A DNA stretch of 64,000 bases from a virus, in the IMG/VR virus record IMGVR_UViG_3300027741_000027, positions 32,001 through 96,000 of that record; one strand, 5' to 3'. Shown one piece after another: positions 45,222 through 47,767 of this stretch (its first letter is position 1; the number at the start of each line of letters is the position of its first letter). Made by a program: the position numbers and the translations under genes. The notes under the pieces were generated by a model that was not told where the DNA came from, ran no database searches, and saw nothing but the letters and a program-made list of their open reading frames with translations.

Positions 45222-45252
45222 TTGGCCGTTCCTCTCATTGGTTGATGGAATC

Positions 45253-45285
45253 ATCTTAGCAGGTGCTAGGTAAAGTAAAGGTAAA
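45253..45285 (-). promoter_or_regulatory. TTTAC-box promoter
   Basis: TTTACC-N5-TTTACC-N10-TAAGAT with TG extension. Confidence 0.7.
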
Positions 45286-45288
45286 GCT

Positions 45289-45528
45289 TTATGATCCCCA
45301 ACCGCGAGCCTGACCATACGGATCATTGACTTCACGGTATAGGCGCTGTTCTGCCTGCTCCTGAGCGTCTGCGGCGGCGGCGGCAGGGTCAGCGGCCTGT
45401 AGTGCTTCCTTTTTTGCCTGAGCGTCTCTAAGACGCTTTAGGGCTTCATCGTATGCCTGTTGATCCTGTGCGCGTCTCATATCGAACGCTGCATCAGTCA
45501 TCAGGTTTCTATAATCATTGATTGTCAT
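45289..45528 (-). CDS. Hypothetical protein (leaderless)
   Basis: 79 aa; ATG 6 nt after the -10 box. Confidence 0.7.
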   Translation of the reverse strand: MTINDYRNLMTDAAFDMRRAQDQQAYDEALKRLRDAQAKKEALQAADPAAAAADAQEQAEQRLYREVNDPYGQARGWGS

Positions 45529-45534
45529 GGATTC

Positions 45535-45567
45535 ATCCTAGCAGGTCGAAGGTAAAGGAAAGGCAAA
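45535..45567 (-). promoter_or_regulatory. TTTAC-box promoter
   Basis: TTTGCC-N5-TTTACC-N10-TAGGAT with TG extension. Confidence 0.7.
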
Positions 45568-45623
45568 ACATCTGTTGCATGTTGTGCAACACGATCCATC
45601 TGGTCCTTCCCGCCCACCCTGTA

Positions 45624-45667
45624 AGTGTATCGCCATCCGGCGGCGGCAAGAGTAAAGATATGGCAAA
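45624..45667 (-). promoter_or_regulatory. TTTAC-box promoter before a G-rich non-coding stretch
   Basis: TTTGCC-N5-TTTACT-N21-TACACT. Confidence 0.5.
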
Positions 45668-45708
45668 AGATTGGAGGGGGCGATTGGCACCCCCTCCGCT
45701 CTTGCTTG

Positions 45709-45978
45709 CTACGCTTTTGCTGCGAACCTGCGGCCCTTGTCTGTCAGGCCGTAGTAGTGGGCAGGGCGGCCACGCTTCTCGCTCTTGACCTTGCCTGTGA
45801 TCTTGACCAGACCGGCCTTCTGCATCCGTGTCATAAATGACGGGGCAACCTCAAGGCTCATGGCCGTTGCTTGGCCCTTCTGTGCCTTGATTGCTGCCAT
45901 TACAGTGGCGGCGTTGGCCTCACCGAAGATTGTGCGGTGGTGCTTGGTGGTCTTGGTGGTTGTCTTGGTTGATGGCAT
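45709..45978 (-). CDS. Winged-helix-like DNA-binding protein
   Basis: MTRMQKAGLVKITGKVKSEKRGRPAHYYGLTDKGRR, a typical wHTH wing (GRP..Y.LT..G); AAGGAG SD. Confidence 0.65.
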   Translation of the reverse strand: MPSTKTTTKTTKHHRTIFGEANAATVMAAIKAQKGQATAMSLEVAPSFMTRMQKAGLVKITGKVKSEKRGRPAHYYGLTDKGRRFAAKA

Positions 45979-46018
45979 TTGGATTATCTCCTTGTTGGTT
46001 GATTGCCTTGTGTTACAC

Positions 46019-46062
46019 ACTGTATCAAATGATTTGATATTGAAAGGTAAAAGGTAAGTAAA
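46019..46062 (-). promoter_or_regulatory. TTTAC-box promoter
   Basis: TTTACT-N5-TTTACC-N21-TACAGT with TG extension. Confidence 0.7.
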
Positions 46063-46074
46063 ATTTAGTCTTCG

Positions 46075-46269
46075 TCAAACGGGCATATTCTTTACGCCGT
46101 ACTGAATCGCCATCTGTAACCAATTCCAGTGAAGGGGGGCGTAAAGCTCTTGCGTTCTCTGGCAAGAATGGCGTAATCCGCAATTCCCGAATGGCATATG
46201 CCAATTGCCTTCTTCGCTGCTACTCCAATGTTCATACGGAGTCGGAGTCTTCTTTTTGTTGGGGTGCAT
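46075..46269 (-). CDS. Hypothetical protein
   Basis: Start reassigned to ATG 46269 (AGGAG SD). Confidence 0.6.
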   Translation of the reverse strand: MHPNKKKTPTPYEHWSSSEEGNWHMPFGNCGLRHSCQRTQELYAPLHWNWLQMAIQYGVKNMPV

Positions 46270-46297
46270 TCTTATCTCCTGATTGGTTGATAGAGTC

Positions 46298-46330
46298 ATA
46301 CTATCAGGTGCTAAGTAAAGAAAAAGTAAA
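46298..46330 (-). promoter_or_regulatory. TTTAC-box promoter
   Basis: TTTACT-N5-TTTACT-N10-TAGTAT with TG extension. Confidence 0.7.
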
Positions 46331-46375
46331 ACTTTCCCAATGCTTTTTACTGCCTTGTCCTCCCGCCCGCCCATC

Positions 46376-46418
46376 ATTATAACGACAGGCGGCGGGGCGC
46401 AAGCAAAGGTTAGGTAAA
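46376..46418 (-). promoter_or_regulatory. TTTAC-box promoter before a G-rich non-coding stretch
   Basis: TTTACC-N5-TTTGCT-N20-TATAAT. Confidence 0.55.
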
Positions 46419-46422
46419 GGGT

Positions 46423-46446
46423 GGAGGGGGCATTTCAGCCCCCTCC
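46423..46446 (-). terminator. Probable terminator hairpin
   Basis: GGAGGGGGC-6 nt-GCCCCCTCC downstream of the 46470-46730 gene. Confidence 0.55.
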
Positions 46447-46469
46447 GTGCCGCTCAACCAAACGGCAAA

Positions 46470-46730
46470 CTATGAAATCTCGTCCTGAAGCTCCCAAATC
46501 TCGATCTGATCGGGGTTCTGAGTCTGGAGGTTGGCAAAGTAATCGCCAATCGCCTCGTAGATCACGCGGCCCAGATCATCTTCGTTGATCTCTGACTCGT
46601 CTGGCGTGAACGGTGTCTTAGGCACCGCTACCAGAATCAGGCAATCTTCGTGAGCTTCTGCGTCCTGAGCAAGCTCATAGAAAGACTTAGGTGCTGCTTC
46701 GATCTTGTTACGACGGTTAAAGAACTTCAT
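46470..46730 (-). CDS. Hypothetical acidic protein
   Basis: 86 aa, AAGGAG SD. Confidence 0.7.
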   Translation of the reverse strand: MKFFNRRNKIEAAPKSFYELAQDAEAHEDCLILVAVPKTPFTPDESEINEDDLGRVIYEAIGDYFANLQTQNPDQIEIWELQDEIS

Positions 46731-46764
46731 GTGATTCTCCTTCGGTTGATTTACTGTGTTTCAC

Positions 46765-46807
46765 ACTCTAGCAGGTCAATTGGAGCTAAAGGTAAAGGAA
46801 TGGCAAA
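46765..46807 (-). promoter_or_regulatory. TTTAC-box promoter
   Basis: TTTGCC-N5-TTTACC-N20-TAGAGT with TG extension. Confidence 0.7.
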
Positions 46808-46821
46808 ACATTAAATTTGAT

Positions 46822-47134
46822 AAAGAAAGGGCCGGGATTGGGGAACTGTGAAATTCCTCTCCCGGCCCTAACTGTCGCATATGCTGGCTATACCTGCTCA
46901 GTGCGCCTATCTTCTGAGTCAGTCGGCTTTATAGCTGCCTTATCGCTGGACACTCTCTACTTTGAGTTCCGAACCCATGATAGCTGTATAGTCGTCTATC
47001 CACTGCACTCGCACCTATGTTAGCGTGGCATCTCATCACGGTCTGTTTTACGAGATTGCTACCGACTCTCGTTAGTCCTCTAACCGACCGTCGCCGGTCT
47101 GACTACATGGCCGATGGGCTAGCTCCATCAACAA
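46822..47134 (-). ncRNA. Candidate ~310-nt structured non-coding RNA of unknown family
   Basis: Has its own consensus promoter and a strong terminator (46822-46869), many nested stems, and no convincing ORF with an SD. Confidence 0.6.
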
Positions 47135-47139
47135 GAACA

Positions 47140-47184
47140 ACTATACAGATGGCCCCATATGAAGTCAAGTAAAGGTTTAGTAAA
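47140..47184 (-). promoter_or_regulatory. Consensus promoter plus TTTAC box for the ncRNA candidate
   Basis: TTGACT-17 nt-TATAGT, with TTTACT-N5-TTTACT abutting the -35. Confidence 0.75.
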
Positions 47185-47232
47185 GGATTTACCAATGCAA
47201 TGGATGGTCTTTGTTCCGCCCTCCCACCCTTC

Positions 47233-47275
47233 ATTATAGCAACAAAACCAATACGAAAAGTAAAGGTTTTGCAAA
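47233..47275 (-). promoter_or_regulatory. TTTAC-box promoter before a G-rich non-coding stretch
   Basis: TTTGCA-N5-TTTACT-N20-TATAAT with TG extension. Confidence 0.6.
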
Positions 47276-47474
47276 AAGCCTATAAAGTGGAAACAGAGAA
47301 AGGTGATGTATTCAGGGTTTTCTTTACTTTTCAGTAGTTTACCCGGATACTTTTCATATTATATAAAGGGGAATATTTTACTTTATATATATTGGTATAT
47401 TTCACTAGGGATATTCTTAGTCTTTTCCCTGCAAAATAAAGGTTTTTATTTTTATAAAATAATACAATAAATTG

Positions 47475-47518
47475 ATTATATCATATTTTTTCCATTTGTC
47501 AAGTAAATATTTGGTTAA
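47475..47518 (-). promoter_or_regulatory. Consensus promoter plus TTTAC box firing into the AT-rich region
   Basis: TTGACA-16 nt-TATAAT with TG extension; TTAACC-N5-TTTACT abutting the -35. Confidence 0.65.
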
Positions 47519-47658
47519 TACTTTACTTATGCCTTAGCTGCACAAAATACCATCACTGCACCTACAACTGCAAATAATACGGTCATAATTCCTTTCAGAT
47601 TGAATATTTTACTTATAAGTATGAATACTTTACTTATGATAAGGGATATATTACTTAT
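47515..47658 (+). repeat. Iteron-like direct repeats (T(G/T)AATA(C/T)TTTACTTAT family)
   Basis: TTACTTAT cores at 47523, 47609, 47630 and 47651; the last three have an exact 21-bp period. Confidence 0.7.
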
Positions 47659-47767
47659 CACCTATTATATACACGGGAGGAAGTGGGGGTGAGTGGAGGG
47701 GGGTGGATAGGTGAACAACCTCACATTGAGCCATTCCATTTGGATTGAAGCACCTCACCCTGCCACC

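Follow-up and report, generated by a model that had tools for sequence, protein, structure and literature searches.

A candidate stand-alone gene for a structured non-coding RNA in the early-gene array of a freshwater myovirus

The RNA gene and its surroundings

The DNA considered here, referred to as the window, is a stretch of 64,000 nucleotides that corresponds to bases 32001-96000 of IMGVR_UViG_3300027741_000027, a 136-kb virus record of IMG/VR with an estimated completeness of 85%. On the minus strand of the window, at 47134-46820, lies a unit with its own promoter and terminator, which very probably represents a real, transcribed gene for a structured non-coding RNA (ncRNA) of a new family. 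An earlier sequence-only reading of this DNA had proposed a stand-alone unit running from promoter to terminator and encoding an unclassified phage ncRNA. Both proposals have held, the first through the limits of the unit just given, and the second through the lack of any Rfam match and of a conserved open reading frame (ORF), the covariation observed among 12 homologues, and the finding of contigs from RNA libraries that are confined to the unit.

Small early genes form a long array on the minus strand, in which the RNA gene is located, and TTTAC boxes together with a TAnnnT -10 box are found ahead of each of them. The sequence CCTTTAC occurs 21 times in the window (7.4 expected), and 7 of these 21 copies fall on the minus strand within 45250-47270. 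The promoter of the RNA gene (47140..47186, minus strand) comprises two CCTTTAC boxes (47186-47180 and 47175-47169), the -35 element TTGACT (47168-47163) and the -10 element TATAGT (47145-47140). The TTGACT-17-TATAGT arrangement at 47168-47140, already recognized in the sequence-only reading, agrees with the consensus at 10 of 12 positions, and transcription would start near 47133. Relatives retain CTTTAC(C)-N10-TATAGT or TATTGT ahead of the RNA; the -10 box is one of these two hexamers in 9 of the 11 copies whose upstream sequence was read, the exceptions being the variants L060 and L061. The small protein genes of the array have TAGAGT, TAAGAT or TAAGGT at this position.

At the other end of the gene, the intrinsic terminator (46820..46868, minus strand) consists of a compound GC-rich hairpin at 46868-46829, with a 6-bp inner stem and the 10-bp outer stem that had been claimed, followed by the U-rich tail UUUCUUUAU. 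All variants terminate in a hairpin of the GCCGGG...CCCGGC type plus a U-tract. Between both signals, the first ATG (47128) opens only 18 codons and lacks a Shine-Dalgarno (SD) sequence, in agreement with the earlier observation. Among 10 variants, sense ORFs are not conserved in position, in frame or in length, the longest ones (17-37 codons) differing in place and frame from one variant to another. The length of the RNA varies between 270 and 340 nt, and the indels that distinguish the variants are not multiples of three. These motifs show the RNA gene to have a predicted sigma-70/sigma-A-type early promoter and an intrinsic terminator of its own. Early timing is proposed because the promoter shares the TTTAC boxes with the surrounding small early genes and because no phage RNA polymerase (RNAP) was found among the 29 large proteins of the phage that were scanned.

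The record encodes a tail sheath protein, baseplate protein J, DnaE, RecA, an SNF2 helicase and DnaB, as well as a class II ribonucleotide reductase and an endolysin with VanY, PG_binding_1 and GH25 domains, and the phage is a large myovirus. Its five tRNA genes are clustered ~45 kb from the RNA gene. The DnaE-type polymerase (genome 2244-5405, outside the window) finds its best matches in Rhodococcus phage E3 and in cluster C mycobacteriophages, with ~30% identity over 96-98% of the protein; since this DnaE is closest to actinophage homologues, the host is probably an actinobacterium. A search for AmoC, made with regard to a link with amoC phages, gave no match, and its control likewise gave none.

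Two other features have been observed in the vicinity of the gene. A perfect TG-extended consensus promoter (TTGACA-16-TATAAT, 12 of 12 positions) is present at 47475-47502 on the minus strand, in an AT-rich gap upstream of the RNA, with no evident gene behind it. In addition, G-run modules with the sequence GGGNGGGNGGG are found at 47219-47229, 46362-46372 and 45609-45619 (minus strand), beginning 4-6 nt past consensus-like -10 boxes; three such modules after -10 boxes were found, where 0.08 would be expected. One copy adjoins the RNA promoter on its upstream side, and does so in relatives too (L003, L019, L044, L041, L059 and L060). In L060 and L061, the G-run pairs with a C-run that is followed by a U-tract. 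The module may be a G-quadruplex or R-loop element, or it may give rise to a very short terminated transcript.

Homologues and family searches

The window was scanned with the 4227 models of Rfam 15, which include those for 6S RNA, tmRNA, RNase P, SRP, GOLLD, ROOL, OLE, HEARO, riboswitches, the T-box and ribozymes. No family reached its gathering threshold anywhere in the window, and permissive filters returned only two chance-level matches, snoU6-53 (14 bits against a threshold of 36, E 4.3) and SmY (E 6.4). The lack of tRNA and tmRNA hallmarks stated in the sequence-only reading is in line with ARAGORN, which finds neither kind of gene in the window. Similar phage DNA was not detected in 50,697 phage records by blastn with a word size of 11. 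When 185,579 prokaryote genomes were scanned for an exact pattern, eight matches were obtained, all of them rejected by the covariance model described below, and no prophage or host copy was found.

Twelve alignable homologues have been collected from independent lake assemblies and from related phage contigs of ~130 kb. A neighbouring gene for an 86-aa protein led to two relatives in IMG/VR: G001, which is 98% identical to the window RNA with its 3' domain replaced, and G002, which is ~70% identical. A motif scan of metagenomes provided L018 and L019, while homologues of two neighbouring small proteins, together with contig look-ups, provided L030, L031/L032, L033, L036, L041, L044, L059 (on a 137-kb contig), L060 and L061. 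Two exact-motif scans of IMG/VR returned G001 and G002 as the only real copies, the rest being chance matches in coding regions; one motif found both, and the other, which is absent from G001, found only G002. Two further relatives identified by their capsid genes (G003 and G004) are fragments without the RNA region. A covariance model built from three close copies recovers all the homologues at 68-247 bits, with the exception of L036 (17 bits), which contains an N gap. All the sources named in the homologue records are lakes or other fresh waters. As far as it can be searched, the family is confined to a single lineage of uncultured myoviruses from fresh water, which are ~130-160 kb in size and probably actinophages.

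A second cassette made of promoter, RNA and terminator is located directly behind the first one at positions 401-690 of L031, and the same is observed in L032. It shares the 5' start GUUCCUGUUG with the first cassette and also contains a P1-like hairpin, a P2-like helix and, as a linker, CAAG; the 3' two-thirds differ. This second cassette was not found in the other loci or in the genome of the window phage, and it suggests a wider superfamily of such RNAs.

Presence in RNA libraries

The stretch is present in 20 public runs from 16 studies, eight of the 20 being lake metatranscriptomes. Four RNA runs from four studies were compared with 46300-47700 as assembled Logan contigs, and each of them yielded a single contig, 228-262 nt long and wholly inside the RNA unit. 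These contigs cover 46861-47122, 46891-47122 and, in two cases, 46886-47051; the unaligned ends of the latter two correspond to P3 and a 3' module of the type found in L019. In none of the four runs were contigs found on the flanks (46300-46860 or 47123-47700). These data show that the RNA clearly exceeds its neighbouring genes in RNA libraries, and no more than that.

The two contigs that share the end at 47122 come from different studies, and this end lies ~11 nt inside the predicted start. The 5' ends of RNAs usually lose ~10-15 nt in second-strand library chemistry. The shared end fits this usual loss, and k-mer assembly explains it equally well.

Conserved fold and covariation

The fold has been studied on A6, a 12-sequence alignment guided by the covariance model, because MAFFT alone misplaced the insertion of G002. 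L036 was left out of this alignment, as was a variant named X14, whose rebuild was incomplete (four substitutions near the contig end were unlisted). For the 44 pairs proposed, 92.6% of 475 cells are paired in A6. Both sides change in 26 of these pairs, compared with 8.9 +/- 2.3 in column shuffles and with at most four in a control in which partners were slid by 1-3 columns. Each core helix holds at least two pairs that change on both sides. The z-score of the minimum free energy is -3.0 for the window RNA, -3.4 for the complementary strand, and -1.7 and -2.4 for two relatives. Thermodynamics is weak evidence because the opposite strand folds equally well, and for this reason the case depends on comparison and expression. 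The strand is fixed as the minus one by comparison of the variants, because P1 and P6 contain G-U pairs, which on the plus strand would read A-C.

The fold supported by this alignment consists of local hairpins arranged in a row, in which a 5' core (P1-P6) is followed by exchangeable 3' modules; all the coordinates below refer to the minus strand. P1 (47110..47132) is formed by GUUGAUGG and CCAUCGGC and closes a 7-nt apical loop. Its cells are paired in 93.8% of cases, two pairs covary (GC>AU and AU>CG), and many U-G/U-A switches are observed. The GATGG/CCATC stem seen by the sequence-only reading is part of this hairpin, and covariation supports it. P2 (47073..47105), which pairs UAGUC with GACUA in 100% of cells, changes on both sides in all five pairs and encloses the variable hairpin P2a and a conserved YAGAG bulge. 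P2a (47099-47086; GACCG-GCGA-CGGUC) is swapped for unrelated hairpins in L019, L030, G002, L041, L059, L060 and L061. P3 (47050..47072) pairs ACGAGA with UCUCGU, a stem that had also been noticed earlier and that covaries: two pairs do so, with GC>AU, GC>UA and GC>CG changes, and the stem is CAACA/UGUUG in L019 and CUAG/CUAG in L059.

The 11-nt loop of P3 carries CGGU (47064-47061), which could pair with ACCG at 47042-47039 in a pseudoknot (47039..47064). The CGG/CCG core of this element is conserved and 87% of its cells are paired; the fourth position (pair 132-151) is UA, CG or AU. The pseudoknot is considered tentative because this fourth pair is mismatched in four sequences. P4 (47004..47030) pairs UGCCACGC with GCGAGUGCA around the loop UAACAUAGGU (47022-47013). 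Three outer and two inner pairs of its stem covary, the outer stem being UGC/GCA, CGC/GCG, GGA/UCC or AGA/UCU. The loop is the most conserved sequence of the family, with the consensus UAA-NNN-AGGU in 12 of 12 sequences. P5 (46979..47000), which belongs to middle module A, pairs GAUAG with CUAUC around a 12-nt loop containing CUAUAC, and four of its five pairs change on both sides. The same proportion is found in P6 (46964..46976), the GGGUU/AACUC hairpin, which had been detected as GGGTT/AACTC and is likewise supported by covariation; it shows a G-U pair in seven sequences and is followed by the conserved CAAAGUAG...UGUCC.

The variable 3' domain (46877..46939) holds P7a, P8, the sequence UAUAGCC and an 8-nt palindrome. 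P7a (46939-46925) has a GGC/GCC stem that covaries with GAC/GUC. P8 (46922-46894; CUG-CUCAG/CUGAG-CAG, loop AAGAUAGGCGCA) covaries between CUCAG/CUGAG, CCCGG/CCGGG and GUUAGG/CCUAAC, which endorses the CTCAG/CTGAG stem that had been drawn inside GCTATA/TATAGC. UAUAGCC (46892-46886) can pair with the P7a loop, and the palindrome GCAUAUGC occupies 46884-46877.

Other parts of the structure drawn from the letters were not sustained. The helix ACGGTC/GACCGT, thought to close a multiway junction, does not agree with L019 and L030, which swap ACGGUC for an unrelated hairpin while keeping GACCGU. The GTTAG/CTAAC stem competes with P2, the helix that covariation supports, and the place of the multiway junction is taken by the row of local hairpins.

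Several motifs suspected by eye were also discarded. A contact between the P4 loop (AUAGG) and the loop of P5 or of the middle module (CUAU; ACCU in G002) varies in register between lineages and does not fit L041. A K-turn in the AG/YAGAG internal loop would have a G-A order unlike that of the canonical motif. The reading of UUCGGAA as a T-loop fails on two counts, since a G occupies position 58 and L060 does not retain the loop. Finally, the bases that recall a sarcin-ricin loop (ACGAGAG) form the covarying P3 stem.

Exchange of modules between variants

Whole modules distinguish copies that are otherwise near-identical, namely the P2a hairpin, the stem-loop of P3, the middle module and the 3' domain. 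The middle module exists in two forms, A (P5, P6 and the sequence that follows P6 up to UGUCC) and B, a single GGAG...CUCC hairpin lacking P5 that is present in L044, L041 and L036. The 3' domain is wholly replaced in G001 and L030, and partly in L019/L033, L059 and L060/L061. When compared with 46877-47100 of the window, L030, L019, L033, L044 and L041 appear as mosaics whose modules have been exchanged independently, and L030 mixes parts of three RNA types. As modules have been exchanged between almost identical copies, recombination within the RNA gene seems to be frequent. The invariant portion is the 5' core, and above all the P4 loop.

A palindrome in the P1 loop

The palindrome GCUAGC (47123-47118, minus strand), located in the apical loop of P1, is proposed as a symmetric kissing-loop dimerisation site. 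The same hexamer is found in G001, L019, L031, L044, L041 and L036, while G002 and L059 have GCGCGC, and L060 and L061 have GAUAUC. Columns 15-20 of A6 are self-complementary in 10 of the 10 sequences that cover them, and two of the three pairs covary, CG being replaced by AU at positions 2/5 (columns 16-19) and UA by GC at positions 3/4 (columns 17-18), which are adjacent. Pairing between two copies of the RNA is the simplest reading because adjacent bases cannot pair within one loop. The same argument, a palindrome that covaries at adjacent bases, has been confirmed by cryo-electron microscopy (cryo-EM) for L9.3 of OLE and L21a of GOLLD (bioRxiv 10.1101/2024.12.08.627333).

Nearest-neighbour energies of the self duplexes are -8.6, -13.9 and -4.6 kcal/mol, and those of cross-lineage duplexes range from -3.5 to +1.3; according to the same kind of energies, the whole P1 hairpin is able to convert into an extended duplex. 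The odds that two copies of the RNA pair through this palindrome as a symmetric kissing loop are judged to be about even. Because the palindrome differs by lineage, copies from different phage types should not cross-pair. The palindrome of the 3' domain is invariant wherever it is present and thus shows no covariation.

Proposed role and alternative explanations

The explanation favoured as a whole, function included, is that of a stand-alone gene for a structured ncRNA of ~270-340 nt, to which a probability of roughly 0.55 can be given. In the mechanism proposed, the host RNAP would transcribe the RNA immediately after infection, dimers would form through the P1 kissing loop and possibly convert into an extended duplex, and the RNA, associated with itself, would serve in trans as a scaffold for a partner protein or as its decoy. 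The invariant loops (UAA-NNN-AGGU in P4 and CUAUA in P5) would be the contact surfaces, and the swappable peripheral hairpins would serve as spacers or as arms-race surfaces. This particular function, that of an early RNA made by the host RNAP and acting in trans as a scaffold or decoy, is inferred and put forward as a tentative proposal. A role in protein binding or assembly is favoured over an antisense one because of the lack of above-chance complementarity within the phage, the rich architecture, the presence of invariant loops on variable stems, and the module swaps, which are reminiscent of an arms race.

It is also possible, though far from assured, that the RNA is a compact member of a wider class of phage RNAs, so far unrecognised, whose members function as quaternary assemblies of RNA only and capture or disable a host factor. 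Under this proposal, a symmetric homodimer, or a higher oligomer built through GCAUAUGC and CUAU/AUAG loop pairs, would form within minutes of infection; the lineage-specific palindrome of P1 would be a self/non-self code that separates the RNAs of co-infecting phage types; and the whole assembly, not any single hairpin, would be the functional unit.

Several points weigh against the favoured explanation. Only ~6 sequence types among the homologues are truly independent, and the pairing counts given above are inflated by the fitting of A6 to the proposed model. Some variants can dispense with the 3' domain and the middle module, so that several loops that look conserved are not universal. The palindrome depends on three loop types, that is, on two compensated switches, and the hexamer of L060 and L061 partly fits an extension of the stem (GGA/UCC). 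Regarding expression, Logan contigs cannot give strand, exact ends or level, their depth is 3.6-6x, and it is only the absence of flanking contigs that excludes a carry-over of DNA. Finally, the host has been assigned by distant DnaE similarity alone.

Among the alternatives, the one that survives best, although it is unlikely, is an antisense-type regulator whose conserved single strands (the P4 loop, CAAAGUAG and AGCCAGCAUAUGCGA) would pair with host or phage mRNAs early in infection. Several unpaired segments of invariant sequence would suit such a regulator, and so would an early and abundant transcript from a strong promoter. Nevertheless, the 136-kb phage genome holds only 10-12-mers of complementarity, in about the number expected by chance, and a 300-nt architecture of multiple hairpins kept by covariation exceeds what a seed-type small RNA needs.

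An RNA of the 6S/Ms1 type that would sequester the RNAP or a sigma factor of the probably actinobacterial host is improbable. The sequence-only reading had compared the RNA with Ms1 on account of its size, with the caution that no sequence match was seen, and this caution was right. Ms1 is also ~300 nt long (PMC9130861); both RNAs are stand-alone and have terminal hairpins, the present one appears to be abundant, as Ms1 is, the DnaE matches make an actinobacterial host likely, and some loops carry UAUAAU or UAUAGU words that resemble a -10 box. 6S and Ms1 RNAs form a long rod closed by their 5' and 3' parts, with a central bubble, to which Ms1 adds short terminal hairpins (PMC9130861). In contrast, no long-range closing stem is found here, where nine local helices use nearly all the sequence and leave no room for the closing stem and bubble. 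Moreover, no Rfam 6S or Ms1 match appears even at E 10, and the -10-like loops are absent from G002. 6S and Ms1 are chromosomal RNAs of the stationary phase, whereas the present one is encoded by a phage and predicted to be early.

A ribozyme or self-processing RNA, or else an RNA processed into smaller active pieces, is just as improbable. The complex conserved fold with its possible pseudoknot would be compatible with it, as would the fact that the contigs of two studies begin at the same base of the P1 loop (47122). However, no known ribozyme model of Rfam matches, this end is equally explained by 5' loss in libraries and k-mer assembly, and no other sign of cleavage is seen.

Even less probable is a cis-acting leader, either an attenuator, a riboswitch-like sensor or an antitermination element, that would control the downstream early genes. 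The terminator is indeed followed at once by an array of early genes with the same orientation. Nonetheless, the next gene has its own promoter with a TTTAC box at 46798-46765, between the terminator and its SD sequence, relatives carry different downstream genes or a second RNA cassette, the RNA contigs end ahead of the terminator, no conserved terminator/antiterminator alternative is present, and Rfam gives no riboswitch or T-box match.

The weakest alternative, a DNA-level element with incidental transcription (an operator-like inverted repeat, an origin or primer-RNA region by the AT-rich tract, or a decayed protein gene), can appeal to P1 being a 23-bp imperfect palindrome ~20 bp downstream of the start site and to the AT-rich, repeat-bearing tract and G-run modules just upstream, but it is contradicted by G-U wobbles and U-G/U-A switches that fit RNA pairing and not symmetric DNA half-sites, by the covariation of nine separate helices, by a lineage-changing palindrome that an operator read by a protein could not tolerate unless the protein covaried, and by indels not in multiples of three together with the lack of a shared ORF.

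Comparison with known RNAs

The RNA can be regarded as a new family within a known kind, that of orphan and ornate phage ncRNAs; no described phage RNA matches it. Its closest mechanistic analogue is the group formed by OLE, ROOL and GOLLD, and its closest positional analogue is the Pleft RNA of mycobacteriophages, and it is a member of neither. Like the present RNA, those of the first group are orphan and highly structured, with stems kept by covariation and conserved loops, and ROOL and GOLLD are borne by phages or prophages. For OLE, ROOL and GOLLD, self-association takes place by symmetric kissing loops, with palindromes that show covariation at neighbouring bases (bioRxiv 10.1101/2024.12.08.627333), and this same signature is found in the P1 loop. 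On the other hand, the present RNA matches their Rfam models neither in sequence nor in structure, and they are ~600-800 nt or longer, against 270-340 nt here. ROOL and GOLLD usually adjoin tRNA islands, whereas the present RNA is ~45 kb away from the tRNA genes, in an array of early-gene cassettes. Furthermore, those RNAs form oligomers, while oligomerisation is here a prediction with covariation support for one symmetric contact.

The Pleft promoter of cluster A mycobacteriophages produces an abundant and stable early ncRNA, far above the neighbouring mRNAs and with no known function (PMC5712189). The likeness to the Pleft RNA of L5 and D29 consists in an ncRNA of a probable actinophage with an early-type promoter, although the contigs available here give neither timing nor level. 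No sequence match to the Pleft RNA was obtained in the blastn search of phage records mentioned above, and Pleft RNAs are not reported to possess a conserved fold or a signal for dimerisation. The phages that encode them are temperate siphoviruses of ~50 kb, in contrast to the ~150-kb myovirus considered here.

At the level of motifs, the P1 loop also resembles two well-known RNAs. The dimerisation initiation site (DIS) loop of human immunodeficiency virus 1 (HIV-1) carries a GCGCGC hexamer, and the phi29 pRNA forms rings by loop-loop pairing. As in the DIS, the apical loop of P1 contains a self-complementary sequence of 6 nt flanked by A residues, which reads A-GCGCGC-A in G002 and L059; as in the pRNA rings, lineage-specific loops are predicted to give self-specific pairing. 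These resemblances imply no homology, and a DNA phage has no RNA genome to link. A myovirus of the terminase type is not known to require a packaging RNA.

A catalogue of 10,006 candidate structured RNAs, in which evidence of expression comes from the human gut only, has been predicted from IMG/VR (Fremin et al. 2023, PMC10690425). These candidates share with the present RNA both the data source, IMG/VR contigs, and comparative prediction, and the RNA may be among those that are uncharacterised.

The function of GOLLD and ROOL is unexplained, and both are too big for easy dissection. An RNA of ~300 nt is small enough for chemical probing, mutational scanning, dimer tests in native gels and cryo-EM, and this one offers a clear promoter and terminator, natural variants with swapped modules, and a testable dimerisation code. 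Since it is found in several independent lake metatranscriptomes, it may be one of the common early products in infections of dominant freshwater bacteria by phages. If the self-pairing were true, RNA-only quaternary structure would reach a new and much smaller class of RNAs and provide a handle on its role in infection.

Other genes of the phage

The plus strand encodes a protein of 2504 aa (genome 91509-99023, window 59509 onward) with PcfJ-like, DnaJ-type CXXCXGXG and Anti-TRAP-like zinc-finger matches. A second PcfJ-like protein, of 890 aa, is encoded at genome 101223-103895.

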